Below are positions 15,844-54,482 of a DNA stretch of 64,000 nucleotides, in pieces (the stretch's first letter is position 1; every line of letters starts with the position of its first letter). The translations under genes were made by a program, and so were the position numbers. The DNA is taken from the NCBI GenBank assembly GCA_000165345.1, contig CM000429.1, positions 384,001 through 448,000 on the forward strand, written 5' to 3'. The notes under the pieces were generated by a model that was not told the DNA's origin, made no database searches, and saw only the letters and a list, made by a program, of their open reading frames with translations.

Positions 15844-17826
15844 TTAATGAGACGAAACATCTAGAAGGCTTATTTCATTAGAATGCTGTTCTAATCCATC
15901 ATTTATTCCGCTAGGTATTGGGTGAAAAACTCGTGTTTCAGAGTTTGAGTTGTTAGATACCATTACATCAGTTTTTTTTTTTTTATTATCTATTTTAAAT
16001 TCATTTGAACTATTTTTTTTTTTTATTTGCGGTAATCTCCTTTGTTTTGACCTCAAAGAATTCAAATAATACTTAATTGCTTTATAAACCGATTGCCAAT
16101 GCATAATACTTGACGTAGATTCACGAACAAAAGTTCCTTTTGAAGCAAGTCCATCTATTGATATAATTCCCTTTGACCAAGGTAATATTTCATTTGAACT
16201 TTTTTCTATTCTCTTTTCAATATGAAAAATAAATACTTCAAATTGTTCTTTGGAAAACTCCATTATTTGAGCAGGCCAAAATGTACACTTATAGTTTACC
16301 CATACTAACTCACCGATTTGAAATTTTGACCCTGGTTTAAGCTTATTTCCATGGGCTTTACAATAGTCACAAAACCAATCATTTTTTGTGATTTTATTCG
16401 CCTGGCTTTGACATGTCAGGTGATATATGTATCCACAATTTACGCACATATTCATACTCTCTTTCCCATTTCTTGGAACCTTACAAATATAGCACTTCCA
16501 TTCTGAATCTTTGGGTAATGAATGCCTAAAAAATACAGGAATATTTAATTGAAAGTTTTCGTCTTTTATATCGTTGTTAATAGAATTGCTCTCCGACTTT
16601 ATTGATTCGAGTTCTAATTCTATTTTTTCCGTTTTGTCACACCGTAAATTATTTAACAAGTTTTTCTGCTCAAGTAATTTCTCATTTGTCTCGCCTTTTA
16701 AATCTGAATTGTTTTGAAGAACTTTTTGTCCAATTCCAGCGAATATCATGTCAATTAGTTCTTCTTTTGTAATATCTTCGGATTTTTCATCAATAGAAAT
16801 CGAAATACCTGGATTTCTTCTTTTTAGTATTTTCGCAACAATATACTTAGGAAGGCAAGAAATTGCTGCATATAAATACATCTTGAAGTTCTCAACATCT
16901 ATTTTATCATTGTAAAAACTTGTATTCTCTATTTTTCCGTTTGAGTTTTTACTCGATTCGGATTTATTCGAATTTAAATTAGAACTTTTTTCCAATTCAA
17001 AAATGTGATTATTTCCATTAATTACTTTTCTTAGTGTATTGTATGTACTTAAATGATCCATTTCCTTATCGTCAAAATGAAATCTATTGTCAGAGTTGTA
17101 ATTAAATAGAGTTGTATCTTCATTTGTTGAGCTTTGAAAGCCAGAATTAATCTTTGAATTGTATTGACTATTCTCAGTATATTGAGTATCCACTAAAGAA
17201 TTTAATATTTGATTGTTTTGAAGTGATTTTTCTTTACTATTTGATAAATACTTATTTGAATTACTATTCTTGCAATTTTGAGAAATACTTTCGTATTGAG
17301 TATTTTGGAATGCTTTATAATAAATACATCTTCCTCTATGGCTTATAAATCCTTTGACACTAAAATAAATTTTCTTGCAATAAATACATCTCACTCTCAA
17401 ACTGGATTTAGTTGGAGTAAATGCATAATTGCATTCTACCTTGATTTTACCTTTTTTTATAGATACCTTTCCTTCTTGCCAGTTTAAATCTAAATTGTTT
17501 TTTGACTTGTTCTTGAAATCGGAATCGAAAGTTACATCTTGGCTCATCTTTCCCTTTAACGCTTCTAGTGAAATGCAATTTTGATTCCCTAACTCATCAA
17601 CCGGGCTCGCGCTATTATTATGGTTATTGTAATCATTGGAATTATTTGCCTTCTCAAGTAAATTAGAATTAAATTTTTCTTGCGTGTTAAATATATAATC
17701 GCTTGTTTGAGTGCAACCTTGGAATATCGAATTCCCCAGAAAATCTTTCTCTACTTCATTTATAGTTCGGATATCTGCAACAGTTTCTTTATTATTTTGA
17801 GAAGTGTTTAGGATATTAATAAACAT
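15844..17826 (-). CDS. Chromatin-reader-like protein with a PHD finger followed by a PWWP-like domain (660 aa)
   Basis: WKCYICKVPRNGKESMNMCVNCGYIYHLTCQ...WFCDYC has C4HC3 spacing. It is followed by GELVWVNYKCTFWPAQIMEF, which resembles the PWWP core. An extra Cys/His cluster (CIYCKK...HRGRC) lies upstream. The rest is Asn/Ser-rich low complexity. Confidence 0.7.
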   Translation of the reverse strand: MFINILNTSQNNKETVADIRTINEVEKDFLGNSIFQGCTQTSDYIFNTQEKFNSNLLEKANNSNDYNNHNNSASPVDELGNQNCISLEALKGKMSQDVTFDSDFKNKSKNNLDLNWQEGKVSIKKGKIKVECNYAFTPTKSSLRVRCIYCKKIYFSVKGFISHRGRCIYYKAFQNTQYESISQNCKNSNSNKYLSNSKEKSLQNNQILNSLVDTQYTENSQYNSKINSGFQSSTNEDTTLFNYNSDNRFHFDDKEMDHLSTYNTLRKVINGNNHIFELEKSSNLNSNKSESSKNSNGKIENTSFYNDKIDVENFKMYLYAAISCLPKYIVAKILKRRNPGISISIDEKSEDITKEELIDMIFAGIGQKVLQNNSDLKGETNEKLLEQKNLLNNLRCDKTEKIELELESIKSESNSINNDIKDENFQLNIPVFFRHSLPKDSEWKCYICKVPRNGKESMNMCVNCGYIYHLTCQSQANKITKNDWFCDYCKAHGNKLKPGSKFQIGELVWVNYKCTFWPAQIMEFSKEQFEVFIFHIEKRIEKSSNEILPWSKGIISIDGLASKGTFVRESTSSIMHWQSVYKAIKYYLNSLRSKQRRLPQIKKKNSSNEFKIDNKKKKTDVMVSNNSNSETRVFHPIPSGINDGLEQHSNEISLLDVSSH

Positions 17827-18254: not shown

Positions 18255-20585
18255 TTAAGATAGCTTACAGAATCCATTAGAATATGAGTCATACCAAAGG
18301 GGATTTTGCCATGTGTCAATGCAAGAAATTGATGAGGAATCAAAGTCCCAGGAATTACAATCATTTTGACTTGAGCTTTCATCTTCTTGCTGAACTTCTG
18401 CAGAGTATACAGTTGGAAGGGTACAAGATACAGATGAATTAAAGAACTTTGAACCAACTGAATAATGAGGGACAGAGGTCGAAGCTTCAGAGCTTATTGG
18501 ATTTTTATCTGTTGTTGGAATACAAAACATATCAATGTTTAAATAATCACAATTCCATGACTCTGTAGCAACCAAGTGCTTGTTAAAGATTGTATAATTC
18601 ACTTGATCATGTTCTATTTGCTCGTTATTCTGAGACAAGGTATTATGGGTGTCCTGATCCAATTGGAAGGATGACAGCGTTTCCGCCTTTTCCTCATTTT
18701 CCGTACTATTGGAATTTCCAACACAAGAACTCAACCCTACCGAAGATTGTACGGTCGTCTCTTCGCTCCATCGGCTTGTTTCAGTGTTAGAATAAAAGTA
18801 TGTCCCAGAAGAAATATACATTGTTTTGTTTGGATCTTCTAAAAATGGTCCATCATAGGTTGAGAAAGACTGGCATGGAGAGGAGGTATAAGAAGAAATA
18901 TTACAGTAATTTGTGTTAGGCGAAACTGTGGTAGATGCTTGATGATGGACAGGCGTTGAAACAGAAAACTTATTACCAGAAACCATGCTATTCCTGCTAT
19001 CCGAACACTTTCTGGATAACACACTATTGCTCAATTTACCTCCAATCCGACTTGGATATGAGTCAATACTTGAACTTTGCGTTGGACTTTGGTGTATACT
19101 ATTTATAGGGCTTTCCTCTGCATTACTTACAACATTCAGTTTTAAGCAATTTCCTCCATAAGATTCTTCGATACCTACCATTATATTGTTTTCGCCAGTG
19201 TTCAAACCGCAATTAACATCGAATGAAAGTTGCTCACTGATTGAAAAGTTTTCTGCAAAGCTGTGCCTTTCATCTACATGAGTTTCGGTTAATTTGTTAC
19301 CATCAATAAAAATATTTTGAGCACAGTGATTGTTTATTTCTAACAGCGAGCTTTTTGAACTGCTATTTTTGTAATTCATTCCGGTTGTATTGGCCTGGCT
19401 GCATACATCAATTGAAGGTTTATCAATAGAAATATTACTATAACCGCAATGTAATCCTACCTCGCTTGAGCCAGAAACTAACTTCCCTGATCCTTCTGGA
19501 ATATCATTGGTAACTGTATTCGTTAATGAAATGCCTTGAAACCCAATTATTGAAGAACAATAACATCGCTGATTATTACCGCATGTTTGGCAATCAAATG
19601 TAGAGTTAGAACAAGCTAGATTCGAACTCGCCGAGTAAGGTGATGACCTAAATGAGATTGGTTTGATGCATTGGCCATTATTAATCGCCGCATTAAGATT
19701 ACAACTTGCTGGATCATTTTTCAAGTTATCATTGGGAACATAAGCGTTCAAATTTTCAGTAAGGTCATGAGAGATAGCTTTACGGTCTTTGTTAACTGCA
19801 TTATTCATTATTGAAACATTTCTACCGTTTGCCACTAAATTTTTACCAACAATTCCACTTATTTTATATCCCACTCCGCCCATTCCTCTTGAATAACTTT
19901 GCCTTTGAGAATCATAATTTTCCTTATTCATTCCTATTTTTTGTGTTTTTAATAGCCCAATAGTTGAACAATTCAAATTATTGTTCATACCTATCTGTAA
20001 AGGTAAACATTTACCATCACGTTTTTTTCTTTGCTTCATCCAACAAGCATTACAGACCCTTAACTTTGATTCGACCGAACATACCGAAATATATCTCCAC
20101 TGAGGAGTTTTTGTAGCAGAGCAAATCTGACAAAAGTAATCAGACCTGTCTAGGGGTGGCCTTCCTGCCCTCCTCTCATTTGTTTGTTTAAGTTTACTAT
20201 CCATATTTTTCATTGATTGAATTTCAGTATCAAAATACCTGGTATTTTTATATCCAAAAATCATGTCTCCCTCACTATTACCATCGCCACCTACATTTCG
20301 CACTGAATCTATCAATATACGATCACCCGATATAACATTATTTAATGGCTGTTGTCCTAACATATTAAGAAAAGGATAATTCTCAAGGCATTGAGAGTCG
20401 CCAGATAAAGTTCTTGTGCCAATGAGAGACTGATCATCAGATAATATATCACAGGATGTTAAGTTAGTCAAAATATTGCTCCTTTTAACTAGCTTTTCAT
20501 CTTTGCTTTGAATAATATTTTCAATAAGAGGAATAGCAATGGACCCACCATTCATATTTCGATTAGTTTCAATTTGCGATTTCAT
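18255..20585 (-). CDS. GATA-type zinc-finger protein with long Ser/Asn-rich low-complexity regions (776 aa)
   Basis: CQICSATKTPQWRY...(17 residues)...RVCNACWMKQRKKRDG follows the C-x2-C-x17-C-x2-C GATA finger pattern, with the basic tail. No other recognisable domain. Confidence 0.65.
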   Translation of the reverse strand: MKSQIETNRNMNGGSIAIPLIENIIQSKDEKLVKRSNILTNLTSCDILSDDQSLIGTRTLSGDSQCLENYPFLNMLGQQPLNNVISGDRILIDSVRNVGGDGNSEGDMIFGYKNTRYFDTEIQSMKNMDSKLKQTNERRAGRPPLDRSDYFCQICSATKTPQWRYISVCSVESKLRVCNACWMKQRKKRDGKCLPLQIGMNNNLNCSTIGLLKTQKIGMNKENYDSQRQSYSRGMGGVGYKISGIVGKNLVANGRNVSIMNNAVNKDRKAISHDLTENLNAYVPNDNLKNDPASCNLNAAINNGQCIKPISFRSSPYSASSNLACSNSTFDCQTCGNNQRCYCSSIIGFQGISLTNTVTNDIPEGSGKLVSGSSEVGLHCGYSNISIDKPSIDVCSQANTTGMNYKNSSSKSSLLEINNHCAQNIFIDGNKLTETHVDERHSFAENFSISEQLSFDVNCGLNTGENNIMVGIEESYGGNCLKLNVVSNAEESPINSIHQSPTQSSSIDSYPSRIGGKLSNSVLSRKCSDSRNSMVSGNKFSVSTPVHHQASTTVSPNTNYCNISSYTSSPCQSFSTYDGPFLEDPNKTMYISSGTYFYSNTETSRWSEETTVQSSVGLSSCVGNSNSTENEEKAETLSSFQLDQDTHNTLSQNNEQIEHDQVNYTIFNKHLVATESWNCDYLNIDMFCIPTTDKNPISSEASTSVPHYSVGSKFFNSSVSCTLPTVYSAEVQQEDESSSQNDCNSWDFDSSSISCIDTWQNPLWYDSYSNGFCKLS

Positions 20586-22232: not shown

Positions 22233-25200
22233 ATGAGAGAGCAAATTCAAAAATTGGTAGAAAACCTTGAGGAAATTGGAAGCGATTATAATACTCTAAT
22301 CGGCGCTTTGGATGTACTATTAAAAGTTCAGTATGAACAATCTATTAATAAATCTGCTTTGGAACTGTATGATGTCATATTAAGACTTGTCAGAGAAACA
22401 GATTATTTGAAGTTTCAAAAAAAGTTTCTCTGTTACATTTACATATTAAAACTCATATCTAAACGTATAAAACTCTCCCTCAGAGAACTATTTTTAGAGG
22501 ATTTTTTAATTAATTTTCCCAAAATAAAATGTAAAATAATCAAAGATCAAATCAATGAAATCATTTTCAATGTTTTATGTTCAAATTTTTCAGAATTTGA
22601 CATAGTTATAAATAAATGGCGAAGTTTGTTTAACGAAGTATATGAAGACAAATGTGGATTTGAATCATTAACTGAATTAATTTTTTATATTTGTTATAAA
22701 ATGCAATTTGAGCCTGAATTTAATTTACCATTCAACACAATTATTTATAAAATCATTCAGAATTTTTCCGAGGTTTATGAAAATGATGGTTCTATTTTCT
22801 TGATCAATTCATTTGTTTCCAAGCTGGAATATTCTCAAAATTTATTATTCCCAATGTTTTTAAATCGTGATTTCGTAGATCAGGCAAGTAAGCTTATTGG
22901 AAATATGATTAAATTATTCGAGAGTAATATAAATATAAAAGTATTTGTTTTTACTTTAAGAATTCCTGGCTTAATCGAATGTTTTATTTCTAATGGATAT
23001 ATTTTTGGCTATAATAAATTCACAAAATCCTTAATTCAAGGAATCACTAGCAAAGATTTTGAAATAAGAAAAAGTACAAGGTTTATATTGGAAAAGTTAG
23101 AAACATTATTAATAGAGAAAAATCTTAATAATTTCAATGCTACTGATAAAAACCATCATTTAAACAACGTAAAATCATTTATCTGTATTTTAGATTGCTA
23201 TGAAAATTTCAGTATTCACTTATTAAAAACTAATTGGGATAAATTTGAAAAATTATTGTTCGATCTTCAAAATTTAGAAAAGGAGTGGTGGATAGATTGC
23301 TTAATAGAAATTGGGCTCAATCATGAGAATTTGAACGTTCGGAAATTTGTCGCTTTTAATACTATTAACCTTGCAATTAAGAATCCCAAGAATTTACCCA
23401 ACTGGATAAAGCGCAATACATTTTTTAATGAATATTTAAGATATATTGTTTCATCACTTAACAATAAAATCAGCCTTCAGATAGAAGAGCTTTTCCTGAA
23501 ATTTATTTATTGCGTACTAAGGGTCAAGATTGAATGGATTAATGAGTATTTGAAATACATTGCATGCAATATCAAAGCCTTTACGCCAATTCGTGTTTTA
23601 ATTTACCCTTTAACAATCGGTACAAGGAATAACTTATATCTTTTCAATGATTCCATGAATATATCAGAAGGAACTAATGTTACTAAGATTGAGAGTTTGT
23701 TCCATAACTTTAATTCATGTAATATTAAAACAAATGTATCGAAAGATATAGCCAACAAATATTCTTTTCAAGAACACAAAGATTTCGAAGAATCTATTAT
23801 TATCCCAAAAGAATTATTTACTAAAGTTCTTGATATTTCGATACCAATCATTAAATTTGTTCCAATATTATTGAGACGTGAAGTTTATTCCAAATGGTTA
23901 GAAATTATCTTAAATTATTTTGTTTGTAACGAATTTTCTACGGATGAATTAATAAAAAATCTTATTTTATTTTTGGGGATAATCCCTGAATACTTGTTTT
24001 CTACAAATGAGATTTATGCAGTTATATATAATAATATTATAAAACATAAATTGGTTATAAATTCTTGTTTTGATCCTGAAATATTAACTTCATCAAAAAC
24101 ATGGTTTAATATATTTCAATTAGGAGTTGGGTTTGGGAGGCTAAAACAAATCTTTGGATCTTTTAGCGATTCGAGTCTAATAATTAAAAGTCATGTTGTA
24201 TTTGTTTCTTCATATTATAATTGCGAAGAAATGTATAATTTAAATAGTAGTATGAATGACAAGATAATTGAGATTTCCGAAAAAATGAAAATTTTGTTCG
24301 AAAACTCTGATGGAAATAATTTTATTGATATCGACTTGCTTTGGCTTGATATTCACTTGTTATCAATATTAAAAGGTGATTCCTATAATTTTTATCTGGA
24401 AAAATTATGGAATTGGTGCATTTTAGTAATAAGCGATATTGACACACTTTTAAATAGAATAAAATCAAATATTAATTCACAGATTTCTTTTGCAATGATA
24501 TTAAAGTGTCTGATTTATTTGCAAAAAGTTGGAAAATATTCATCGATACAGAATATTTTTGACATTGTTAATAATTTATTGTTAATAAGCAATAAAATGT
24601 TATCAAATTTGTTAATGAACAACCAAAATTTAATTATTTGGGATAAAGCCAGAAGAACGAATTTTTTATACGATATAATTGATATACATTCCATAAGCAA
24701 TGACAAATATTGCATAATACAATCATCATTTTTAACGTTAGGCTTTCCAGAAAATTACTCGAGTAAATATAATAATATTATTAGGGGGAACAGACTTGTT
24801 CAATTATTCCCTTCAAATTACCGTGATTTTTTTAATCTTATATCTCAATTAAAGTTTCAGTTAGTTAATTTAATTATTTCAAAAAATGCAGATGAAGCTT
24901 TCAGTTTAGTAGAAAATGATATTTATTATTATTCTATAAGCTTAAAAGTCTCTGGAGATAATTTTTTGTATGCAAAGGGATCTCTTTCAGATTGGTTCAA
25001 ACACATCACAGAAATATTGTTTTATGAGATTGAACACTGTGGCTTTGATAGTTTTTATATATGGTTATTAATGGAACAATTGCTTGGCTTTGTTTGCATT
25101 GAAAATTATTATAATTTTGAAGAAAACTTCATTTCTCAACTCTTGAATAAAATATTTGAATTAATAATTAAAAATTGCGATGAATTGATAGATAATGGAA

Positions 25201-27659
25201 TCTATAGAAATAATTTATTCACAATTTTTAATTCAATTTTGACAAAAAAAGAATACACAATATTGTTTGAAAGACATTACTTGATAAATAAGGTGGCCAA
25301 CCATTTTTACTCTTGTATTAAATTAAATAACGGCAATGTACGGTTTTTTATTTTCCCTTTATTGGATTTAATCAAAAACTATATTGAAAGTTGCAATGAA
25401 GATATTTTTGAAGAATCTCTTAAATATTCAAGAAACATGATTCAAATCGATTCAGAAAGTCTTAGTAATATTATTATATTTGCAAATATTTTAGTTGAAT
25501 TGATCGTTTTTGAAGAGCAAGGGTTAATTGACGGAAGCAAAGTGAGATTTCAAGAATTTTCTATAGAGAATAATGTTGGAATAAGTGAAATGATTGATAT
25601 TTATAGAAGATGTAAGATATATGAGGATAGTGGTAGTTTTTTAAGACATGTAACAATTATTTATCTGTCAAATCTTATCGAAGATTCGAATTCGAAAAAA
25701 CATGATTCGTTAATAAAATTCATCTCAATGATAATTATTTTATTGACAAAAAAATTAGAAGGTGCTATTCCAGCGTCAGTTCAAGATAAGCTGGCTTTAA
25801 CAAATATTCAAGTAAATACAACTGATTTAAATATTTCAAATTGCTTTTTAATTAATGAAGCCGAAAATAGTTTCAAAAATGCAAAAAAATTCCCTCCCTT
25901 GCCAAATAGCAACCATCATAAATTTCTAATTAATATTTGGCAGTCGATTTGTTGTTTAATAAATATTTTAAATTCAAGCGAAGACAAATTTGTTAATTAT
26001 TTGATTGGATTCTACTTCAAGCATCTACAATACCTTTATAATCCAGATGTTAGGCAGTATATTGATATGTTTGGCTGCAATATTGTCGTATATTTTCCAA
26101 AAAAGTGCATTGAGTACATTATTGAAGGCCTTTCAAACAATATTAACAATCATACGCAAGTAATTTATTCTTATCTTTGCATTTCAAGCTATTTGATACA
26201 TTTTTTGAAAGATGTTTCTCCTCTGCCATTTAACGATAACTCTGAAACGGAAGTAATTAGCGATATTTTTGCTTTTGAAGGAGATTTATGGATTAAAATA
26301 AATATTGAATTTCTTGATAAGTACGTTTCGTTCTTTAATTTGTTTGCCAGCTATTCAATATCAAACTCATCCCTTTTGAGAAATGTTGTTCTATATACAT
26401 TATATGATGCATATAATAATAATTACGTTTTTGAAATTTTACAAAGGTCTTTTGAAAGTTACTTCTCTTCAGACACTGAAAATATTCATTCATTAGCGAT
26501 TGATTTTAAAAGTGCCCTCAAAATTGAAGAAACTAAGGCTAAAATAGAGATAATTCGAAATTCAAGATATTATGCGAGTAATAAGCTAGATACTTCCAAA
26601 CAAATATTTTTACTTAATTTATTTATTTTAGAAGAATCAAAATATATGAGAACTTTAGTTAATAGTATTTTCAATAATCATGATATCTTGAAGATGCTAA
26701 AGAATTTATCAATAGTTTGGACTATTTGGAAACCAATTAAATATTGTGCAGTAGAAAATATTATTCCGCGAGATAATTTGGTAGAGTTCTCGGATCAAAA
26801 GGAATCCCAAAATTTCTTTAATTGTTCATCATGCTTAGATTCAATATTAGGCAAATTGGATGGCAGTACCGATATTTATGAAACCAACTTTGAAAAGGAG
26901 CTACTTGCAATGCAAGATAAATGCGAAACATACATATTGAACTCCCATTTGATATTTGGAGATCTTAGACCCTCGTGGAGTCTCTACTATCTACTGAAGA
27001 AAATCATATGCAAAGAGATGAGCGGATACTACGCACAAGAAAAAGAAGAGAAAGAAGAGCATAACGCAATAGAAATTCAGAGGTCTCATAACTACCAACT
27101 AAAATTCGAACCTCCACACTACGATAGCCTCATTTCCGGTGAGCCAAGATCAAGGAGGTCGGATAACCGGCTGTTAAATAGATCAGGGCTAATAGTAATA
27201 GGAAGCCTTGTTGACAAAGTTCCAAATATAGCAGGAATAACTAGGACCTGCGAGGTCTTCCGCGCCAATGAGTTACTGTTGAGCAGCAAGAAAGTTATGA
27301 ACGACCCTATTTTCAGACAAATCTCTGTTACAGCAGAGAAATGGCTGCCAATAAACGAGCTGGAACCTACAAAGATCAAAGAATACGTTCAGAGGAAGCG
27401 GATGGAAGGATACAAGATATTTGGATTGGAGCAAACGTCCTCTAGTATTTCCATTAAAGGATGCGTCTTCCCAGAAAAGTCTGTTTTGATTTTAGGGAAA
27501 GAGAAAGAAGGTATACCCTCTGAAATTGTTTCGATTGTGGATCAGTGCATTGAAATCCCTCAATATGGGATAATAAGATCGCTTAATGTTCACGTATCAG
27601 CTTCAATCTTTATATATGAGTACACAACTCAATTTATGCAAAGCTTATCGATTAATTAA
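22233..27659 (+). CDS. TARBP1/Trm3-like large protein with a C-terminal SpoU/TrmH 2'-O-ribose RNA methyltransferase domain (1808 aa)
   Basis: The C-terminal 160 aa carry the three SpoU motifs (GLIVIGSL...; IFGLEQTS...ILGKEKEGIPSEI; IPQYGIIRSLNVHVSASIFIYEY). The roughly 1600-aa N-terminal region is helical-repeat-like, as in Trm3/TARBP1. Confidence 0.85.
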   Translation: MREQIQKLVENLEEIGSDYNTLIGALDVLLKVQYEQSINKSALELYDVILRLVRETDYLKFQKKFLCYIYILKLISKRIKLSLRELFLEDFLINFPKIKCKIIKDQINEIIFNVLCSNFSEFDIVINKWRSLFNEVYEDKCGFESLTELIFYICYKMQFEPEFNLPFNTIIYKIIQNFSEVYENDGSIFLINSFVSKLEYSQNLLFPMFLNRDFVDQASKLIGNMIKLFESNINIKVFVFTLRIPGLIECFISNGYIFGYNKFTKSLIQGITSKDFEIRKSTRFILEKLETLLIEKNLNNFNATDKNHHLNNVKSFICILDCYENFSIHLLKTNWDKFEKLLFDLQNLEKEWWIDCLIEIGLNHENLNVRKFVAFNTINLAIKNPKNLPNWIKRNTFFNEYLRYIVSSLNNKISLQIEELFLKFIYCVLRVKIEWINEYLKYIACNIKAFTPIRVLIYPLTIGTRNNLYLFNDSMNISEGTNVTKIESLFHNFNSCNIKTNVSKDIANKYSFQEHKDFEESIIIPKELFTKVLDISIPIIKFVPILLRREVYSKWLEIILNYFVCNEFSTDELIKNLILFLGIIPEYLFSTNEIYAVIYNNIIKHKLVINSCFDPEILTSSKTWFNIFQLGVGFGRLKQIFGSFSDSSLIIKSHVVFVSSYYNCEEMYNLNSSMNDKIIEISEKMKILFENSDGNNFIDIDLLWLDIHLLSILKGDSYNFYLEKLWNWCILVISDIDTLLNRIKSNINSQISFAMILKCLIYLQKVGKYSSIQNIFDIVNNLLLISNKMLSNLLMNNQNLIIWDKARRTNFLYDIIDIHSISNDKYCIIQSSFLTLGFPENYSSKYNNIIRGNRLVQLFPSNYRDFFNLISQLKFQLVNLIISKNADEAFSLVENDIYYYSISLKVSGDNFLYAKGSLSDWFKHITEILFYEIEHCGFDSFYIWLLMEQLLGFVCIENYYNFEENFISQLLNKIFELIIKNCDELIDNGIYRNNLFTIFNSILTKKEYTILFERHYLINKVANHFYSCIKLNNGNVRFFIFPLLDLIKNYIESCNEDIFEESLKYSRNMIQIDSESLSNIIIFANILVELIVFEEQGLIDGSKVRFQEFSIENNVGISEMIDIYRRCKIYEDSGSFLRHVTIIYLSNLIEDSNSKKHDSLIKFISMIIILLTKKLEGAIPASVQDKLALTNIQVNTTDLNISNCFLINEAENSFKNAKKFPPLPNSNHHKFLINIWQSICCLINILNSSEDKFVNYLIGFYFKHLQYLYNPDVRQYIDMFGCNIVVYFPKKCIEYIIEGLSNNINNHTQVIYSYLCISSYLIHFLKDVSPLPFNDNSETEVISDIFAFEGDLWIKINIEFLDKYVSFFNLFASYSISNSSLLRNVVLYTLYDAYNNNYVFEILQRSFESYFSSDTENIHSLAIDFKSALKIEETKAKIEIIRNSRYYASNKLDTSKQIFLLNLFILEESKYMRTLVNSIFNNHDILKMLKNLSIVWTIWKPIKYCAVENIIPRDNLVEFSDQKESQNFFNCSSCLDSILGKLDGSTDIYETNFEKELLAMQDKCETYILNSHLIFGDLRPSWSLYYLLKKIICKEMSGYYAQEKEEKEEHNAIEIQRSHNYQLKFEPPHYDSLISGEPRSRRSDNRLLNRSGLIVIGSLVDKVPNIAGITRTCEVFRANELLLSSKKVMNDPIFRQISVTAEKWLPINELEPTKIKEYVQRKRMEGYKIFGLEQTSSSISIKGCVFPEKSVLILGKEKEGIPSEIVSIVDQCIEIPQYGIIRSLNVHVSASIFIYEYTTQFMQSLSIN

Positions 27660-28905
27660 GTTTCTTTTTGCTACATTCTGCCTCGCAGTACTCACCAATT
27701 AAACTAGAAAAACTAGTTTCTGGGGAGAACGTTTGGACAGCCCTAGAAACATAAGAAACTGCAGGGGTTGAACCCATAGCTGCGATAGGAAAACCGACTT
27801 TAGACATTATCTCCAAGTCATTTTCACCGTCACCCAAATATGCTACTTGGTGGAATTTGAGTTTGAGTTTCTTCAAGATGAGTCTAGCACCATTCAGCTT
27901 GGAGGCGTTTTGAGGGACAATTTCCAATACATTTGGTACTGACCTGTAGATTTTGCAGCCAAACATTTTGACAAACGTCTCCAAATGCTCTCTTAAATGA
28001 AGGAGCACATCAGGGTCCTCCACTATGACAATCTTGAATATTCCCTTAATCTTTTCACCTTCTCTTGGTTCCAAAAATTTAGACAAGTTAACACCCTTAT
28101 GAACCATGCTATCAATCTCTTGGCTCATATACTCCTTCATGTTTTCGCCCTCAAATCCATCAACGAATAGGCCATTAGAGTTCTCAATTGCGATGTTCAA
28201 TAGACGTAGCGAATCAGCAGATTCGTCATCCTTCTCTTCATTATTAGAAATCTTTGCATACTTAGAATTTCCGTTTCTATTTGATTCAAATCTTAAAGAC
28301 TTTTCATTAGATACTGCAAATTTCTTAACATACTTAACAATTTCCAATGCATCTTCGGAATTAATCCTGGTTTCGTATAATACATCCTTAATGCCACCTG
28401 GACCAAAGACAAGAGCACCATTGTAATATACTCCTGGAAATCCGGTAAATACAGAGTTCTTAAGACCGTTTGTAATAAACTTCAATGAGCTAGTGTATGA
28501 TTTACCAGTAGCAGGGAAAAATTTAATATTAGATGAGAGAATGTCTCCGAAAATCATTGAATTTGATTCAGCAATATAGCTCGAACCAACTCCAGCTAAT
28601 GAACCATCCAAGTCAGAAATAATACAATTGAAAGAACAATTATATTTTCTCTGCTCCTTCTTTGCACGCAAGCTTCTATGCACAGACATGTTAAGATCAA
28701 GTACTTCAAACGGCAAGACTAGAGGGGTATATGAAGCATTGAAGTACGTAAAATTTGACATGATTTCCATCGAGCTATTTTTATCCAATTCAGTTATGTT
28801 CCCATTGCTATTTTCCAGAATAACATCCTGAGATCTTGTATCCTTGATGAGGGCAAATGCAAGAACAATAGTTGAAACTAGGGCTTTCTTAATCATTTTA
28901 AACAA
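27652..28905 (-). CDS. Secreted HAD-superfamily phosphatase, Cof-type (417 aa)
   Basis: N-terminal signal peptide (MIKKALVSTIVLAFALIKDTRSQ). HAD motif I DxD (IISDLDGSLAG) and motif IV GDGxND (YLGDGENDLEIM) are present. The CDS stop overlaps the convergent TARBP1-like CDS by 8 nt. Confidence 0.8.
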   Translation of the reverse strand: MFKMIKKALVSTIVLAFALIKDTRSQDVILENSNGNITELDKNSSMEIMSNFTYFNASYTPLVLPFEVLDLNMSVHRSLRAKKEQRKYNCSFNCIISDLDGSLAGVGSSYIAESNSMIFGDILSSNIKFFPATGKSYTSSLKFITNGLKNSVFTGFPGVYYNGALVFGPGGIKDVLYETRINSEDALEIVKYVKKFAVSNEKSLRFESNRNGNSKYAKISNNEEKDDESADSLRLLNIAIENSNGLFVDGFEGENMKEYMSQEIDSMVHKGVNLSKFLEPREGEKIKGIFKIVIVEDPDVLLHLREHLETFVKMFGCKIYRSVPNVLEIVPQNASKLNGARLILKKLKLKFHQVAYLGDGENDLEIMSKVGFPIAAMGSTPAVSYVSRAVQTFSPETSFSSLIGEYCEAECSKKKLN

Positions 28906-29980: not shown

Positions 29981-31519
29981 ATGATATTAAAAAATATGCA
30001 TCTAAGTAAGAATATAATTTCAAGAAAAAGTGCCAAGCTTCAGTTTTACCGTTTTTCAAAGCTCTGGCATAGCGAAGTAATATTTAAAACAGTTATAGTG
30101 GCATTACTAATTGTAATAAACATTATATTATTGATATATACATTGATAAAGATTGATGGAAATAAATGTGATGATTTCTTAGCTTTATTTGGGTGGATGC
30201 TATTACTTTTATATTGTGGAGTCTTAATTGATATTGAGTCTTCCAGAAGTTTGAAAATTTGTCTTTCAATTTTAATTCTTATTAATTTAGTGTGCATTGA
30301 GAAAAACATTTTAATGGTTGGAATTACAATTGACTTTTTAAATTTAGGAGTTCTCTGGCCTATTTTTAAGTATGGAGAAATACGTTTAGATTCAGAGGAA
30401 TATTATGAAGATGAATATATTCTGCCATTAATTGACAGTAGTAAGAAGTTATTAAATGTATACTATGAACTTTGGAGAAGAAATAGCTATGGAGGAATTA
30501 AAAGCTACAATGGGCTACTTGTAACTAGATGCGTAATAATGTCTTGTATATTCCTTTGTATTTTATTATTTAATACAGTTGATAAATACACTAATTTTGG
30601 CAAAAACAAATTTACAGAATTGCAAAACATAATCTATTTAAGAAGTACACAAATTATATCAAAAACCGAATCTATTGATAAAATATCCAAAATTGGAGGT
30701 AACGGTATATTTATAGCACAAATCATGATTATTACTTTAGCTGTGTTGCTAAAGCCGGTCTTATCAAAACTTGTTAATTTAATAATAGTATTCAAGAATA
30801 AATGCATATTAACGCTAAAAAGCAATGAAATGAGTGATGGGAAAGTAAAGCAAATAGTTAAATTTAATGATTACGAGTTTAATCATCAAAATTTGGATAT
30901 TGAATCTAACAAACAGAATGCTTTTATTAATCAGAATAAATTGCTCAATAGTTGTATATTTTTTTTTTCCGTATTTCTATTTGGAATAATAACATGTGAA
31001 AATAGGGAATTTGATATAATTTCAAGGATGTTTTTGATTGAACAAGATAAGACAATTGTGCTATGCATTTTATTGCCCTTAATTGGCTTGCTAACTGAAA
31101 TTTCTACGTTCAGAGATTGGTGTTGGTACTTCATTTTCTCATGGGTTATATATTGTTTTAATATTTGGTCAGATAATTCAATGGTAAAGAGTATCGCTAG
31201 TATACTTTCAGGAGTGCTCTTCAACATATCGGCGATATTATTTGTTATAAATCAGACAAAAAACTCAAGTAATAATAATAAAGTTCGGGAATATATTCTT
31301 ACAAGTTATATTTTTCAAAAGATGTGTTATTTTTTGGGGTGTAGTATGTCGAAAAAAGTTTTTTCAAGTCATGAAAGTAGCATTATAAAAAATATATATT
31401 TAATCATCACAAATATTATAATAATTTTTAACTTATATTTTCTTCTTTATTTTAGTTCGAGTCGAGAAATAGCTTCTAAGCAAGACGACAATGAAATTGA
31501 GTGGGATGTAGTATATTAG
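29981..31519 (+). CDS. Hypothetical multi-pass membrane protein (512 aa)
   Basis: A long ORF with at least 8 predicted hydrophobic helices and no recognisable family motif. Its stop codon directly abuts the stop of the convergent CDC50 gene. Confidence 0.6.
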   Translation: MILKNMHLSKNIISRKSAKLQFYRFSKLWHSEVIFKTVIVALLIVINIILLIYTLIKIDGNKCDDFLALFGWMLLLLYCGVLIDIESSRSLKICLSILILINLVCIEKNILMVGITIDFLNLGVLWPIFKYGEIRLDSEEYYEDEYILPLIDSSKKLLNVYYELWRRNSYGGIKSYNGLLVTRCVIMSCIFLCILLFNTVDKYTNFGKNKFTELQNIIYLRSTQIISKTESIDKISKIGGNGIFIAQIMIITLAVLLKPVLSKLVNLIIVFKNKCILTLKSNEMSDGKVKQIVKFNDYEFNHQNLDIESNKQNAFINQNKLLNSCIFFFSVFLFGIITCENREFDIISRMFLIEQDKTIVLCILLPLIGLLTEISTFRDWCWYFIFSWVIYCFNIWSDNSMVKSIASILSGVLFNISAILFVINQTKNSSNNNKVREYILTSYIFQKMCYFLGCSMSKKVFSSHESSIIKNIYLIITNIIIIFNLYFLLYFSSSREIASKQDDNEIEWDVVY

Positions 31520-32542
31520 TTATATCGATTCTAAGAAGCTTCTCAATATAATTTTTAATGTATTGCACGGACAAGATAACATAAAAATAAATAAAAAAGA
31601 TATTGTGAATAACCATACGCTCCAAATCAAGAAGAAATAGCTTGCTTTAATATTTTTACTACCAAGAAACGACACTCTTTCAATTCCTAATCTTTTTTTC
31701 GAGTTAAAATTTTCTGCTGGCCACATATTATCAATCATTTTAATCTCGTATTTTCCCCTTTCTAATCCATGAGGTATTTGACCCCAAACCATTTTGAAGC
31801 TGGGAAGCCATGCACCATGCATCCAGATTCTGTAATGTATGTCTGTGGTTTTTATCCACATCATTTTGTTGTATGGGACTGCAAACATTGAAAAATCATT
31901 TTTCAGTGATAACTGGTCAATTTCAACGTTAAGCAATTCTTTTTTGCCATCCTCTTTTAACATATATATCTCAAATTTGTCATTATAAAACGTGATGGAT
32001 GACAATCCACATGGTATCAGGGGTACTTCTTCACCAGTTTCATCAATTTTTTCTACTTGGATTTTATTTATATAGTTATCAAGAGTGTTTCCACGAACTT
32101 GGCGTAAGTAAGTAATTGTTTTTGCTGTCCCACAAGTAAAACCTGGGAAAATATCTGAAGGCCTGCTTTGAACATAGGATCGGAAATTTTGATAAAAGTT
32201 ATCTATATATATATTTATATTTACTGGCCCAGTAATATCATTCTCTATATTGAATATTAGGCTGCTTACGTTCTTTTGTATCGGTTCACTAATATACTCT
32301 ACATATGAGTTGCTTCTATAATTGAAAAAGAAAAATGCTGCAAATACTGCATGAAAGACGCCACCAATTAAGAACAAAATAATTGCAATTTTTGGTGAAA
32401 ATAGATACTTCCCAGGATTCCAAATCTTCATATCCTGTTGTACAAATGATTCTAAGATTTCATCAACTTTTTTCTCGCCCTTTCTTAGCCGTTGTATCCA
32501 AACCAAATTTGAAAGTTCGTGCCTATAATAGTTCGAGTTCAT
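31520..32542 (-). CDS. CDC50/LEM3-family protein (P4-ATPase flippase beta subunit)
   Basis: FVQQDMKIWNP precedes TM1, then a large ectodomain with conserved cysteines including LIPCGLSSITFYNDKF (the family PCG motif), then a C-terminal TM (YFFLIWSVWLFTISFLFIFML). Confidence 0.8.
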   Translation of the reverse strand: MNSNYYRHELSNLVWIQRLRKGEKKVDEILESFVQQDMKIWNPGKYLFSPKIAIILFLIGGVFHAVFAAFFFFNYRSNSYVEYISEPIQKNVSSLIFNIENDITGPVNINIYIDNFYQNFRSYVQSRPSDIFPGFTCGTAKTITYLRQVRGNTLDNYINKIQVEKIDETGEEVPLIPCGLSSITFYNDKFEIYMLKEDGKKELLNVEIDQLSLKNDFSMFAVPYNKMMWIKTTDIHYRIWMHGAWLPSFKMVWGQIPHGLERGKYEIKMIDNMWPAENFNSKKRLGIERVSFLGSKNIKASYFFLIWSVWLFTISFLFIFMLSCPCNTLKIILRSFLESI

Positions 32543-32859: not shown

Positions 32860-33126
32860 CTATTTATGAATTAGCGTATACATTGTAGTCCATGTTAGAA
32901 TAAATGTTACTAGACATGTAGCAACATTTTCTATGACAATTTCTGTAGGATCTAAAATTCTTTCTGGAATATCAAGTAAATTAAGATATGTGGTTCCAAT
33001 AAATACTAATCCAAGTATTGCAGAAATAAGAACTGTGGCACCCTTAAGTCCAAATATTCCACATCCTACACCAAATAAAAGTGCACAAATTTGGAGAATC
33101 CAATAGGTTATAAGAGAAACTTCGTC
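32860..33126 (-). CDS. EMC6: EMC6 (ER membrane protein complex subunit 6), exon 2, including the stop
   Basis: Not in the ORF track. The minus-strand translation ...GVGCGIFGLKGATVLISAILGLVFIGTTYL...TFILTWTTMYTLIHK* matches the EMC6/TMEM93 two-helix core and the C-terminal FxWTxxYxxxH tail. Confidence 0.6.
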   Translation of the reverse strand, partial: DEVSLITYWILQICALLFGVGCGIFGLKGATVLISAILGLVFIGTTYLNLLDIPERILDPTEIVIENVATCLVTFILTWTTMYTLIHK

Positions 33127-33173
33127 CTGAAAATTTGATTTTCTTGTTTAGTGAGTAATTAAACTTAACTTAC

Positions 33174-33290
33174 CCTAGTCCACTCAAATGTTGCATCTGC
33201 TTTGATCGCCTTAGTAAGAAGAGAATAGTTTCTGTTATTTGTAATTTTTTCACGGATATTTTCAAAAAATTTTAATTGATTAATTGTCAT
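33174..33290 (-). CDS. EMC6: EMC6, exon 1 (39 codons)
   Basis: ATG at 33290 (minus). The exon ends at a canonical donor GTAAGT (plus-strand ACTTAC at 33168..33173). The 47-nt intron 33127..33173 has a TTTTCAG acceptor and is phase 0. Confidence 0.55.
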
Positions 33291-33316
33291 TGTTACAATT
33301 GCTCTTTCTGACGAAT

Positions 33317-34699
33317 TTATTTAAAAAGGTCTATATTGTCATTCGGCGCGTCGATTGAGTATTTAACTTCTATACAGCCGTTTACATATAGCCATGAAAT
33401 TATGGATTTTACTGTTTTTAATGCTTCATCGCGATTAGAAGAGTATATTTTATCAGAGGATTCATATGGATAATAAATTAAATGCTCAGATGCTCTTTTT
33501 TCTCTAGTAAATTTTTGGAAGAATTCAACAAGCTCACTTCTAACATCGCAAAGTTTCTTTCCATTACAAAAAAATGAGCTAATCAATATAAGTGGGTTAC
33601 ATCCTTTCCAGTCAATAATATCTTTGTATTTTAAGTTAAATCTATTTACTTGAGTTTTTATCGAATCAGGGCAAATTACATAAACTTTGTCATATCTTAT
33701 TATTTCCAAAACCTTTGCAACTTTTTTAGTAATCAGTTTTTGGCAAACCTTCAAAATATTTGATGGTTGTTCTAAAAGTTCAACTGAAATATCCCTGATG
33801 GATAAGTGTGGGTCTGCAATATTCGAAATTTCGTTTATAAGTTCATTTTCTTTATATATATTAGAAAGTTTAGACTTATCAATATAAAAAGTTAATTTAT
33901 CATATAAACTCTCTACAGGGTTTTGGAGGCAATTATTATCGATTGAAGAAAAAAAATGGTGTGGTTTTGATGGCGTTACTGTAAAATCATTGCAATCAAT
34001 TTTTAATCTCGTAAAATATTTAATAAGCTTTTTCGAAAGCCTATTGTTTTTCTCAACTATAGAAAAGATATGCTCCTGCAAATTACTTCTTTCAGACCCA
34101 CTTAAGTTAATATGTTCACTTCCAATCGACGCACCACCTTTATTATTCTGGAAACTCTTATATAAATTCTTCAAATACTCGAACGAAGTTTCATTGGACC
34201 TCAAAATTTCTACAGAAATAAAGTTATTGGCAATTTCACATGATAAAAGAGTACTTGTAATTCTAAATAGCTTTTCTTCTATGAATTCATAGTTTATCAA
34301 AGTTGATGCAATAAATACTAATGTTACGGAGAAACTTTCGATAAATTTATCCAACTCGAGATTTCTATTATCTATATTAATCTTTTTTTGATTATTATTA
34401 AATAAGGCTTGATTTAAGGATTTTGTATGGATTGTTGAACTTGGGAAGAAAACAAATCTATGCTGAAAATCTTTGGACTCAATGACTAAATCGGACATTT
34501 TGTTCCATAATGCTGAGTCAGATGGTAGAATCAAAGGTGCAAGTTTAGAGCATTCATGTCCAAAGCATTCCTTGGTTTGAATAACATTTTTCTCATTTAA
34601 TATAGAAAAGGAGCTCGGGGGATGGTAAAATATAATCTCAGGTTCTTGATATGGCCATTTGACAGTTAAAATGATTCCTACTAAGTCAAAACCGCACAT
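33317..34699 (-). CDS. Hypothetical protein with an N-terminal longin-like start, possibly NPRL2/NPR2 (GATOR1)-like
   Basis: The N-terminus MCGFDLVGIILTVKWPYQEPEIIFYHPP resembles the NPRL2 start ([25 protein letters not shown]). A mid-region ISNIADPHLSIRDISVE resembles the NPRL2 YIDGFRHIQKISAEADVE block. The family call is weak and made by eye. Confidence 0.55.
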   Translation of the reverse strand: MCGFDLVGIILTVKWPYQEPEIIFYHPPSSFSILNEKNVIQTKECFGHECSKLAPLILPSDSALWNKMSDLVIESKDFQHRFVFFPSSTIHTKSLNQALFNNNQKKINIDNRNLELDKFIESFSVTLVFIASTLINYEFIEEKLFRITSTLLSCEIANNFISVEILRSNETSFEYLKNLYKSFQNNKGGASIGSEHINLSGSERSNLQEHIFSIVEKNNRLSKKLIKYFTRLKIDCNDFTVTPSKPHHFFSSIDNNCLQNPVESLYDKLTFYIDKSKLSNIYKENELINEISNIADPHLSIRDISVELLEQPSNILKVCQKLITKKVAKVLEIIRYDKVYVICPDSIKTQVNRFNLKYKDIIDWKGCNPLILISSFFCNGKKLCDVRSELVEFFQKFTREKRASEHLIYYPYESSDKIYSSNRDEALKTVKSIISWLYVNGCIEVKYSIDAPNDNIDLFK

Positions 34700-35089: not shown

Positions 35090-35455
35090 ATGGTTGAAAG
35101 CAGTGACTTCCCACAGATATTAGACCAATTCCCTTTATATGAACATGAAGGAACGAAGACGAAAATTATTGGATTAATATTTTCAAACAAAATTCAATTT
35201 GTCTTGAGCGAAGCGGAAACCTTCGGATCAGTCTTACATGCATCTACAGATCAAGCAGGTATGATTTACGACGTCGAAGTTCTTTTAGGTGATAGAAACG
35301 ATGAGATATCACGGTTATATGCAAGGAGATTACTGGAGCTATTTCGAAGTAAGGGGTATACTAAAAGTAGCCTATTGTTGCTCACTTCTATTAGAAAGCA
35401 CTCTATTGAACATTTGAGAGGCGTTTTAAAGCATATTGATGACAATATCATTTAG
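35090..35455 (+). CDS. Proteasome assembly chaperone 3 (PSMG3/PAC3)-like protein (121 aa)
   Basis: Size and pattern match: VLLGDRNDEISRLYARRLLELF against PAC3 VLLGQDEPLIHVFAKNLVAFVS, and LLLLTSIRKHSIEHLRGVLKHI against VLLAVAVKDKSMEGLKALREVI. Confidence 0.55.
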   Translation: MVESSDFPQILDQFPLYEHEGTKTKIIGLIFSNKIQFVLSEAETFGSVLHASTDQAGMIYDVEVLLGDRNDEISRLYARRLLELFRSKGYTKSSLLLLTSIRKHSIEHLRGVLKHIDDNII

Positions 35456-41269: not shown

Positions 41270-41304
41270 GAAGCAAACTAAAAAAACATAAATATTGTAT
41301 GAAT

Positions 41305-41883
41305 TTAAAGATTTATTTCAGTAGTACTGGATAGTAGTTCCTTAGGTTCAATATTATTGAGGCCTTCCTCTAATGGCATATAATATCCAATATTGCTTGT
41401 GGAATTATTGAATCTAGGATATCCAATATATGCGATATGTAAATTTCCGCCCATTGACATAATTTTTGATTCCCAATCAATGTTATTTATAAGTAATAGA
41501 AATATCTTCAAAGATAAAATCGAACAACAAAAATGATTTGTGATTCCAGATATAAAACTTATAAAATTTAAATCTGAAAGCGTAGCATTTTGAATTTCAG
41601 CATTAAAGAAATGGACCAAGCATCCAATAATACTTGTAATCGAATATATAATATAGAGTATTGGAACTTGCAGGTGAGTTGTAACAATGCCATTACCCAC
41701 AAAAAAAAAGATCTCCAAAAGTCCTAAAATTTGATTATTTAAATAGAATAAGCTGATTGCTCCAATCAAAACTTGTAATATTATGAAATAATTTATCAAT
41801 TTGCATAAGGGGAAAATTATGTTGTAAAGACCGATAAACTGTTCTTCATCTATAGTAAAGAATAAGCTACTCCATACAATCAT
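41305..41883 (-). CDS. Hypothetical small multi-pass membrane protein (192 aa)
   Basis: An ORF with 4 to 5 hydrophobic helices. No family recognised; it could be part of a spliced gene. Confidence 0.4.
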   Translation of the reverse strand: MIVWSSLFFTIDEEQFIGLYNIIFPLCKLINYFIILQVLIGAISLFYLNNQILGLLEIFFFVGNGIVTTHLQVPILYIIYSITSIIGCLVHFFNAEIQNATLSDLNFISFISGITNHFCCSILSLKIFLLLINNIDWESKIMSMGGNLHIAYIGYPRFNNSTSNIGYYMPLEEGLNNIEPKELLSSTTEINL

Positions 41884-46806: not shown

Positions 46807-46821
46807 AGATAGTACTTTATA

Positions 46822-47271
46822 TTAGTAGCGTTTGATAAAGTCCTTTTTTCTATATATTTTAATAGGAAATTTTATGCCCTGATTATTTTTTCCCAATCCC
46901 TCTCCTTGTTTCCAGCCCATTTTTTCAAGTAGTTTTTGGCCTATTTCAAATTTGATTTCAGTTTTCTCAACTGAAATTTTATTCTCTGCCGGGGGAGACT
47001 CGCTTTTATTTTGGTGTATAGTATAAGTATTTGGTGATTTAGGATCGTATTCCAGATCTAAAAGGTTTCCACTTTTATTCCCACATCGAATATCTTGCCC
47101 CTCCATTTCGCAAACTATATTATGGTTTATTGATGAGTCAATGAATATATTCCATGTGTTAGACTTTTTAATTGCGGAAATTTCATCGATACCAGAACTT
47201 GACGATGTTTCAGTATCAGGATTGCTTCTTTTTGAAACTGGGGGTGGGAGCCCGAAATATAGGTCATCCAT
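46822..47271 (-). CDS. Small G-patch domain protein (149 aa)
   Basis: C-terminal G-patch consensus IGQKLLEKMGWKQGEGLGKNNQGIKFPI. It is convergent with the CAF-1 gene, with only 15 bp between stops. Confidence 0.7.
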   Translation of the reverse strand: MDDLYFGLPPPVSKRSNPDTETSSSSGIDEISAIKKSNTWNIFIDSSINHNIVCEMEGQDIRCGNKSGNLLDLEYDPKSPNTYTIHQNKSESPPAENKISVEKTEIKFEIGQKLLEKMGWKQGEGLGKNNQGIKFPIKIYRKKDFIKRY

Positions 47272-54414: not shown

Positions 54415-54482
54415 ATTACATAATTGCATGTAATAACTGTCCATATGGAAGACTTAGATTAAAAAGATTTATTTAATTTCAG

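Follow-up and report, generated by a model that had tools for sequence, protein, structure and literature searches.

Touching and overlapping 3' ends of convergent genes on Cryptosporidium parvum chromosome 1 are conserved within the genus and probably reflect passive genome compaction

The touching or overlapping 3' ends of four facing gene pairs in the DNA analyzed here (64,000 nt, hereafter the window; contig CM000429.1 of assembly GCA_000165345.1, positions 384,001 to 448,000) are genuine features of the sequence and of long standing in the genus Cryptosporidium. The window derives from chromosome 1 of Cryptosporidium parvum, and all eight ORFs involved are genuine genes of this organism. 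We regard these four junctions, together with a fifth one, as the product of passive genome compaction in Cryptosporidium, a reading to which we assign a probability of roughly 0.8. There is no sign of a special regulatory device at the junctions; the phenomenon is ordinary and has already been described. Short convergent spacers are a genome-wide property of C. parvum rather than a peculiarity of four sites.

Re-reading of the ORF ends from the sequence located the four junctions exactly where the initial annotation had placed them, and its protein labels for the paired genes hold. Its count of four tight pairs was too low; each of the four is present, and a fifth pair with a 35-nt spacer has to be added. 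Pfam domains occur in seven of the eight proteins of the four pairs and reach nearly to the C-terminus. Seven of the eight ORFs match database proteins exactly, six of these being GenBank C. parvum proteins. Orthologous ORFs are intact in six to eight species, across which residues are conserved right up to the stop (stops in relatives were called by in-frame scanning from the HSP start; tblastn HSPs can pass through stop codons). Read at the sequence level, the stops of the paired genes are their true ends, and no 3' intron is predicted to move the frame. Only in two pairs, SpoU/HAD and PAC3/RING, does each stop lie inside the partner CDS, whereas the other two of the four listed pairs abut or are separated by a gap.

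The first overlapping pair brings together a SpoU/TARBP1-like tRNA ribose methylase of 1808 aa (22233..27659, + strand; stop TAA at 27657..27659) and a Cof-type HAD phosphatase (27652..28896, − strand; 414 aa from the ATG at 28896; stop TAA at 27652..27654). The methylase is an exact match to EAK88423/QOY43456, with the Pfam SpoU_methylase domain (E=1e-25) at residues 1654-1795 of 1808 and a C-terminus, ...YEYTTQFM.., conserved in seven species. As listed, the HAD ORF spans 27652..28905 on the − strand (417 residues) from a TTG start three codons ahead of the ATG at 28896, and the three extra N-terminal residues thus contributed are its sole mismatch to the database protein. Its Hydrolase_3 match (E=5e-30) extends to residue 386 of 417, and its end, ...GEYCEAECSKKKLN followed by the stop, is conserved across species with the pattern ...ECxKKKxx-stop. 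The two CDSs share the 8 nt TTAATTAA (27652..27659), made up of one TAA per strand and 2 nt between them. The spacing is −8 in chipmunk genotype I, as in C. parvum, and becomes a gap of +8 in C. ubiquitum, +6 in L005, +18 in C. felis, +27 in C. ryanae and +23 in C. xiaoi.

The second overlap, likewise of 8 nt (TCATTTAG, 35448..35455), joins the proteasome assembly chaperone 3 (PAC3/PSMG3; 121 aa; 35090..35455, + strand; stop TAG at 35453..35455) to a Tul1-like membrane E3 ligase with DUF2921 and RING-H2 domains (660 aa; 35448..37430, − strand; stop TGA at 35448..35450). The ligase is an exact match to EAK88417, carries DUF2921 (E=1e-20) and zf-RING_2 (E=2e-8) with the RING extending to residue 651 of 660, and ends in CPTCRR.IPPF(D/E).K-stop across species. 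For PAC3, the Pfam match (E=8e-11) covers profile positions 2-86 of 87 and protein residues up to 118 of 121, and the ORF is intact in eight species at 47-84% identity. Its database matches come only from unannotated Logan assemblies, with no GenBank C. parvum protein among them, and the gene is unannotated in most NCBI records. From its domain and conservation, PAC3 appears to be a real conserved gene omitted by most annotations, probably because of the overlap with the RING ligase gene. This is the only one of the five pairs to overlap in every species compared (8/8: −8, −8, −11, −11, −8, −8, −29 and −11), and the relative reading phase is constant.

At the third junction, the stops of a multi-pass membrane protein (512 aa; 29981..31519, + strand; TAG at 31517..31519) and of a CDC50/LEM3 flippase subunit (340 aa; 31520..32542, − strand; TAA, read as TTA on the + strand, at 31520..31522) directly abut as TAG/TTA at 31517..31522, leaving a gap of 0. 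The membrane protein is an exact match to EAK88420/QOY43453, and its C-terminus, E(I/V)EW(D/E)V..-stop, is invariant in seven species; the flippase subunit matches EAK88419 exactly, with Pfam CDC50 (E=4e-28) reaching residue 321 of 340. Four species have this gap of 0; the distance changes to −4 in C. felis, +7 in C. ryanae and +37 in C. xiaoi.

The remaining junctions are gapped. A CAF-1 subunit A-like protein (932 aa; 44008..46806, + strand; stop TAA at 46804..46806), with Pfam CAF1A_dimeriz (E=3e-8), an exact match to EAK88415 and the C-terminus NNSLITHFFPPKAKG-stop conserved across species, faces a G-patch protein (149 aa; 46822..47271, − strand; stop TAA at 46822..46824) that matches EAK88412 exactly and whose G-patch domain (E=1e-15) runs to residue 144 of 149. 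The 15-nt spacer between them (46807..46821) corresponds to gaps of 15, 15, 22, −4, −4, 43 and 44 nt across species. The C. hominis ortholog of the CAF-1 gene carries the tag CHM_1g1840, so the C. parvum cgd1 identifiers are probably close to cgd1_1840. The fifth tight junction, with a 35-nt spacer (41270..41304), lies between the ORFs 39248..41269 (+) and 41305..41883 (−); its gap across species is 35, 37, 69, 45, 69 and 16 nt.

Convergent gaps in the window amount to −8, −8, 0, 15, 35, 117 and 253 nt. Their median of 15 nt (n=7) compares with 181 nt for divergent (n=7) and 317 nt for tandem (n=13) neighbors (Mann-Whitney p=0.0013), in a small sample of seven convergent pairs from one window. 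All five junctions are also tight in seven further Cryptosporidium species, whose RING-ligase proteins are 45-80% identical, and in the near-identical sister-strain locus L002. Across species, stop-to-stop spacing varies from −29 to +69 nt, with drift at four of the five junctions (−8 to +27 for HAD/SpoU, −4 to +37 for CDC50/membrane protein, −4 to +44 for G-patch/CAF-1 and 16 to 69 for the fifth). Spacing that drifts between species while remaining short is expected under neutral erosion bounded by protein C-termini. CDS overlaps reach only 4-29 nt because the antisense frames of the partner genes meet a stop every 13-24 codons.

Passive compaction probably produced these arrangements as follows. 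Convergent genes have no promoter between them to keep, which would leave 3'-3' spacers free to erode. Deletions and stop-codon shifts would shrink the spacers until two constrained C-termini meet, in places leaving the last 2-9 codons common to both strands, and how far one CDS runs into the other would have a mechanical limit, the first in-frame stop encountered on the neighbor's antisense strand. The 3' UTR and poly(A) site of each mRNA would then presumably fall inside the partner coding region, and convergent partners that are both transcribed would have mutually antisense 3' ends. According to the initial annotation, all four pairs necessarily produce such ends. If both genes are transcribed, this holds for the two overlapping pairs and the abutting pair: since an mRNA must include its own stop codon, any transcript from either gene runs antisense to its neighbor's 3' end. 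Judging from stop positions, overlapping antisense 3' ends at the junctions are very likely. We infer that this overlap is probably tolerated because C. parvum lacks the Dicer and Argonaute that would process such duplexes.

This picture has precedents in the literature on C. parvum. Baptista et al. 2025 (PMC12179316) describe UTR overlaps as frequent and attribute them to compactness, and a preprint by Xiao et al. (2025; 10.1101/2025.01.17.633476) reports extensive UTR overlap whatever the strand. Li et al. 2021 (PMC7840661) give a mean intergenic distance of 504 bp, with transcripts that merge, and the genome is 77% coding (PMC8744675). Each of the 3,302 genes assayed in a time course was transcribed at one or more time points (PMC3305300). 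For C. parvum, PMC3734150 cites the work of Williams et al. (2005 PNAS, PMC1182411) on overlapping transcription in eukaryotes with compacted genomes. A search of open-access papers turned up no study that tabulates CDS overlaps between convergent Cryptosporidium genes.

Other explanations for the junctions deserve consideration. The true stops would lie further apart if a 3' intron, or a member that is not a gene, had been missed in a pair, which is exceedingly improbable. The initial annotation had envisaged that splicing might place the true stop further upstream, and GenBank models of this kind do exist for two genes, in addition to PAC3 being mostly unannotated; cross-species coding conservation and Pfam coverage reject them. 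Spliced membrane-protein models of 394-399 aa appear in NCBI annotations of the sister strain, C. hominis and one C. parvum assembly, and involve a 92-nt GT..AG intron (31120..31211) with a stop 247 nt upstream, but this "intron" is conserved as ungapped coding sequence in seven species; the spliced tail decays to 20, 13 and 4 aa across species, and the unspliced end EIEWDVVY-stop is invariant. A 381-aa spliced HAD in the sister-strain annotation (52-nt intron; stop ~40 nt upstream) would remove the conserved motif GFPIAAMG, which follows GDGxND within the Pfam match, and the conserved ...ECxKKKxx-stop end also contradicts it. PAC3, for its part, is a whole-domain Pfam match. Constrained 3'-end processing, whereby cleavage/polyadenylation signals would sit, under selection, on the strand opposite the partner's last codons, is unlikely, even if overlapping pairs need some signal inside the partner CDS. 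At the CDC50/membrane-protein junction, both strands do carry A(A/G)TAAA hexamers, at +67 to +71; chipmunk genotype I has the hexamers of both strands at unchanged offsets and C. ubiquitum that of one strand, but they lie inside conserved coding sequence and are inseparable from protein constraint. In six of the ten crowded genes, the interval from −150 to +300 around the stop has no copy of A(A/G)TAAA, the published C. parvum poly(A) hexamer, and near stops it is not enriched over a background of ~3 per kb; therefore, 3' ends are not placeable from sequence. Nor is the conservation of synonymous positions raised in the last 35 codons before the stop (0.40, against 0.41 further inside the genes; p=0.93), which agrees with passive compaction, although the comparison has low power (182 near-stop sites). 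Control genes resemble the crowded genes in synonymous third-position conservation, and the last 10 codons exhibit a slight, nonsignificant excess (0.56 vs about 0.40). Scanned in full against Rfam, the window yielded no structured RNA, whether at the junctions or outside them.

Functional antisense coupling would require that overlap be maintained for transcriptional interference, for effects of RNA duplexes on transcript stability or on translation, or for polymerase collision in termination. This is distinctly improbable, as overlap turns into a gap in other species at the drifting junctions and, in a comparison of low power, no extra synonymous constraint marks the vicinity of the junctions. 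The same two observations leave unsupported the proposal of the initial annotation that antisense ends imply either constrained 3'-end processing or antisense-based co-regulation. Published data further oppose co-regulation: neighboring genes were not co-regulated in a genome-wide RT-PCR time course (PMC3305300), and the genes for Dicer and Argonaute are reported absent in C. parvum (PMC12246861, citing Abrahamsen 2004), whereas regulatory examples of cis-natural antisense pairs need RNAi or chromatin pathways. Antisense transcripts, of unknown function and with a 3' bias, are nonetheless recorded for about 10% of C. parvum genes (PMC12246861 and PMC7840661), which is compatible with coupling, as are the CDC50/membrane-protein gap of 0 kept in four species and the RING/PAC3 overlap, found in 8/8 species in the same phase and involving two genes of the ubiquitin-proteasome system. 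The constancy of the latter is accounted for by the conserved C-termini IPPF(D/E)xK-stop and HLRGxLKHI..I-stop. In a narrower version, RING-H2/PAC3, and perhaps also CDC50/membrane protein, would form a selected convergent module in which antisense ends or polymerase collision set termination or balance two ubiquitin-proteasome genes without RNAi; we consider this very improbable. As an observation in its own right, the constant overlap and phase of RING/PAC3 and the gap of 0 at CDC50 in four species could reflect selection on the arrangement and not constrained C-termini alone.

Short overlaps in prokaryotic and viral genomes likewise involve a few nucleotides at stop codons, arise from stop loss or shift under deletion bias and do not extend past the first stop met in the other frame, a limit also seen in this window. 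Most prokaryotic ones are same-strand and tied to translational coupling in operons; the pairs described here are, unlike them, convergent and separately transcribed eukaryotic units. Tail-to-tail cis-natural antisense pairs known from yeast, plants and animals, some of them sources of nat-siRNA, also consist of opposite-strand coding genes whose 3' ends overlap and may give complementary RNA, but these overlaps are usually UTR-UTR, not CDS-CDS. Transcripts that run across several genes, often in one orientation, are said to have been the main concern of the Williams study on compacted genomes. There (PMC1182411, via PMC3734150), as here, transcript ends are pushed into neighboring genes when intergenic space is lost, and this is read as a by-product of compaction and not as regulation; Williams et al. 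2005 dealt with transcript overlap, whereas our observations concern stop-to-stop distances, read from the genome sequence. Closest of all are the C. parvum UTR-overlap studies (PMC7840661, PMC12179316, 10.1101/2025.01.17.633476), which address the same phenomenon in the same organism, with minimal intergenic space and abundant 3'-biased antisense RNA. Their passages on the subject treat general UTR overlap and antisense lncRNAs, whereas the present five junctions add CDS-on-CDS overlap and species conservation.

Extreme compaction and overlapping UTRs, already documented in C. parvum, are a known source of trouble for annotation and RNA-seq quantification. Here, the unspliced 512-aa membrane protein and the 414-aa HAD are the correct models among competing GenBank versions. 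A knock-out, tagging cassette or 3'-UTR swap introduced at one of the ten genes will also hit the 3' end of the partner. C-terminal tagging by CRISPR, the standard method in C. parvum, carries the same risk to the partner at each of these ten genes.

In the window, stop-to-stop gaps between convergent genes measure -8, -8, 0, 15, 35, 117, and 253 nt (negative values denote coding sequence [CDS] overlap; median, 15), versus medians of 181 nt for divergent start-to-start and 317 nt for tandem spacing. Convergent gaps are shorter than the rest taken together (Mann-Whitney p=0.0013), so convergent pairs as a class are systematically crowded, beyond the four junctions singled out by the initial annotation. 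The sequence and an ORF check confirmed the coordinates of all four. The SpoU methylase (22233..27659, +) and Cof-type HAD (27652..28905, -) CDSs share TTAATTAA at 27652..27659, and PAC3 (35090..35455, +) and the DUF2921 plus RING-H2 ligase (35448..37430, -) share TCATTTAG. The TAG stop of a membrane protein gene (29981..31519, +) is followed without spacer by TTA, the stop of CDC50 (31520..32542, -), and 15 nt lie between CAF1 (44008..46806, +) and the G-patch gene (46822..47271, -). A fifth tight pair with a 35-nt spacer (39248..41269, +, and 41305..41883, -) had been overlooked. Pfam bears out the protein labels (SpoU methylase, Cof-type HAD, CDC50, PAC3, DUF2921 plus RING-H2, CAF1A, and G-patch), with domains approaching the C-terminus within a few residues; the membrane protein alone among the eight has no Pfam family. 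Seven of the eight ORFs match database proteins exactly, with GenBank C. parvum Iowa II/IOWA-ATCC proteins (EAK88412-88423, QOY43443-43456) as exact matches for six and unannotated Logan assemblies holding the only exact matches to PAC3. The HAD ORF differs from its database protein solely by a TTG start that the ORF caller chose three codons upstream of the ATG (28896). The long, intron-poor, tightly packed ORFs and G+C content of 25-35% are consistent with the compact C. parvum genome, which is ~77% coding (PMC8744675).

We compared loci anchored on the RING ligase, with 10-kb flanks, from chipmunk genotype I, C. ubiquitum, L005 (a Logan assembly), C. canis, C. felis, C. ryanae, and C. xiaoi, with RING-ligase protein identity from 80% down to 45%; stops were located by in-frame scanning from tblastn alignments, independently of annotation. 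Gene order and orientation are identical at all seven loci. Listed from C. parvum through these species in the same order, gaps in nt (na, not available) are -8, -8, +8, +6, na, +18, +27, and +23 for HAD/SpoU; 0, 0, 0, 0, na, -4, +7, and +37 for CDC50/membrane protein; -8, -8, -11, -11, -8, -8, -29, and -11 for RING/PAC3; 15, 15, 22, -4, -4, na, 43, and 44 for G-patch/CAF1; and 35, 37, 69, 45, 69, 16, na, and na for the fifth pair. Junctions stay tight while gaps vary; the crowding is thus old and persistent, with unconserved exact spacing. Overlap and gap interchange in both directions among species except at RING/PAC3, which overlaps in all eight in one relative phase. Both C-termini are strongly conserved there (RING, CPTCRRxIPPF(D/E)xK-stop; PAC3, HLRGxLKHI..I-stop), and the simplest reason for the constant overlap is that they leave no nucleotides free to drift. 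On the antisense strand, the 3' end of any window gene presents stops at mean intervals of 13-24 codons, limiting CDS-on-CDS overlaps to a few or a few tens of nucleotides (observed, 4-29 nt).

Passive genome compaction is, with a probability of about 0.8, the best explanation of these junctions. Lacking a promoter, convergent spacers would erode until constrained C-termini meet or have a few codons in common. Each 3' UTR would then necessarily lie antisense within the partner's coding region, an arrangement that a parasite lacking RNAi can probably tolerate; C. parvum has neither Dicer nor Argonaute (PMC12246861). The earlier deduction of mutually antisense transcript ends is sound and in line with published transcriptomics. 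In a long noncoding RNA (lncRNA) study, genes are on average 504 bp apart, transcripts overlap and merge, and 92% of lncRNAs are antisense; its discussion describes antisense transcription as biased toward the 3' end of the sense transcript (PMC7840661). As early as 2013, a study citing Williams et al. 2005 drew attention to transcript overlap in genomes compacted to this degree (PMC3734150). The crowding was correctly observed and is an ordinary property of this genome that had been described before; we found no tabulation specific to convergent CDS overlaps in Cryptosporidium in the open-access literature. The crowding calls for caution in C-terminal genome editing of genes at these junctions.

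The initial annotation had further proposed constrained 3'-end processing or antisense co-regulation, to which comparative and literature evidence lends no support. Functional antisense coupling of convergent partners appears improbable, although it, or constrained processing, may apply to RING/PAC3. [quoted passage not shown] Processing signals selected within the partner's coding end, an idea partly overlapping with compaction, are unlikely too, if somewhat less so. Such elements would be expected to cause unusual synonymous conservation in the partner's last codons. The fully conserved fraction of third positions of identical codons in four species was 0.40 near the stop (<=35 codons) versus 0.41 further in for the crowded genes (p=0.93), with no excess in this low-powered comparison (182 near-stop sites). 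Control genes whose 3' end has no tight convergent partner behaved similarly (0.53 versus 0.49), and pairwise species comparisons concurred. The last 10 codons of crowded genes were slightly more conserved (0.56; small numbers, n=32), a pattern to be expected if two genes physically share codons. Of the ten crowded stops, six lack A(A/G)TAAA, the published Cryptosporidium poly(A) signal hexamer, between -150 and +300, and the hexamer shows no enrichment there above a background of ~3 per kb. The CDC50/membrane protein junction is the only one with copies on both strands (+67 to +71), which lie within conserved coding sequence; both are kept in chipmunk genotype I and one in C. ubiquitum. With this hexamer uninformative and no structured RNA in the window matched by Rfam, 3'-end positions are not derivable from sequence alone.

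That the junctions are an annotation artefact is very unlikely, even though spliced models that move stops upstream, the outcome that the initial annotation named as refuting, do exist. The NCBI annotation of L002, a near-identical sister-strain locus, has a 399-aa membrane protein (L002 positions 16159..17450) and a 381-aa HAD protein (18533..19730), each with a small 3' intron shifting the stop upstream; C. hominis likewise has membrane protein models of 394-399 aa, as does one C. parvum assembly. The putative introns, from the Cryptosporidium sp. 43IA8 GenBank annotation, correspond to 31120..31211 (+, 92 nt, GT..AG) and 27743..27794 (-, 52 nt). Cross-species conservation speaks against both. 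The former stretch shows ungapped coding conservation in seven species, in which the unspliced frame ends in invariant E(I/V)EW(D/E)V..stop, and the post-splice tail dwindles across the three species that allow it to be modeled (20, 13, and 4 residues). The latter would remove GFPIAAMGSTPAV, a conserved stretch after GDGxND inside the Pfam match, and the unspliced HAD C-terminus (...ECxKKKxx-stop) is conserved across species. Given this conservation and the intact, whole-domain PAC3 ORF, we take the unspliced stops as real; the comparison indicates that the small introns are gene-predictor artefacts truncating conserved C-termini, which adjudicates the conflicting models. Predictors may add introns or trim ends, thereby avoiding convergent overlaps. 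Annotated and homology-based 3' ends also disagree for chipmunk genotype I SpoU (1774 aa), C. felis CDC50 (301 aa), C. canis G-patch (129 aa), and C. ubiquitum PAC3 (89 aa), at loci L003, L004, L006, and L007. The membrane protein C-terminal motif (31490..31519, +), E(I/V)EW(D/E)V(V/T/E)(Y/F)-stop, is invariant genus-wide. HAD ends in conserved, KKXX-like ECSKKKLN-stop (27652..27700, -) and has a signal-peptide-like N-terminus, features that may reflect endoplasmic reticulum retention.

PAC3 emerges as a conserved gene absent from most annotations. Its 121-aa ORF matches the whole Pfam domain (E=8e-11) and is intact in eight Cryptosporidium species at 47-84% identity. Among NCBI proteins of C. 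parvum and C. hominis, none falls in its 90% cluster, which includes just a 93-aa "hypothetical protein" from C. meleagridis, and L002, L003, and L006-L009 lack the gene in their NCBI annotations. PAC3 has probably escaped annotation, perhaps on account of its overlap with the RING ligase.

Elsewhere, the stop of a 460-aa gene (33317..33319, -), overlapped by AATAAA, lies only 26 nt upstream of the EMC6 ATG (33288..33290); EMC6 has a canonical 47-nt intron, GTAAGT..TTTCAG (33127..33173, -), and both genes are fused in the L003 and L009 annotations. The two (32860..33319, -) form a candidate dicistronic unit of a kind reported in a 2025 preprint (10.1101/2025.01.17.633476). The window also holds two giant genes, one at 641..9271 (2,876 aa) and one open frame, 3,174 codons or longer (54477..64000, +), that runs without a stop past the right end.
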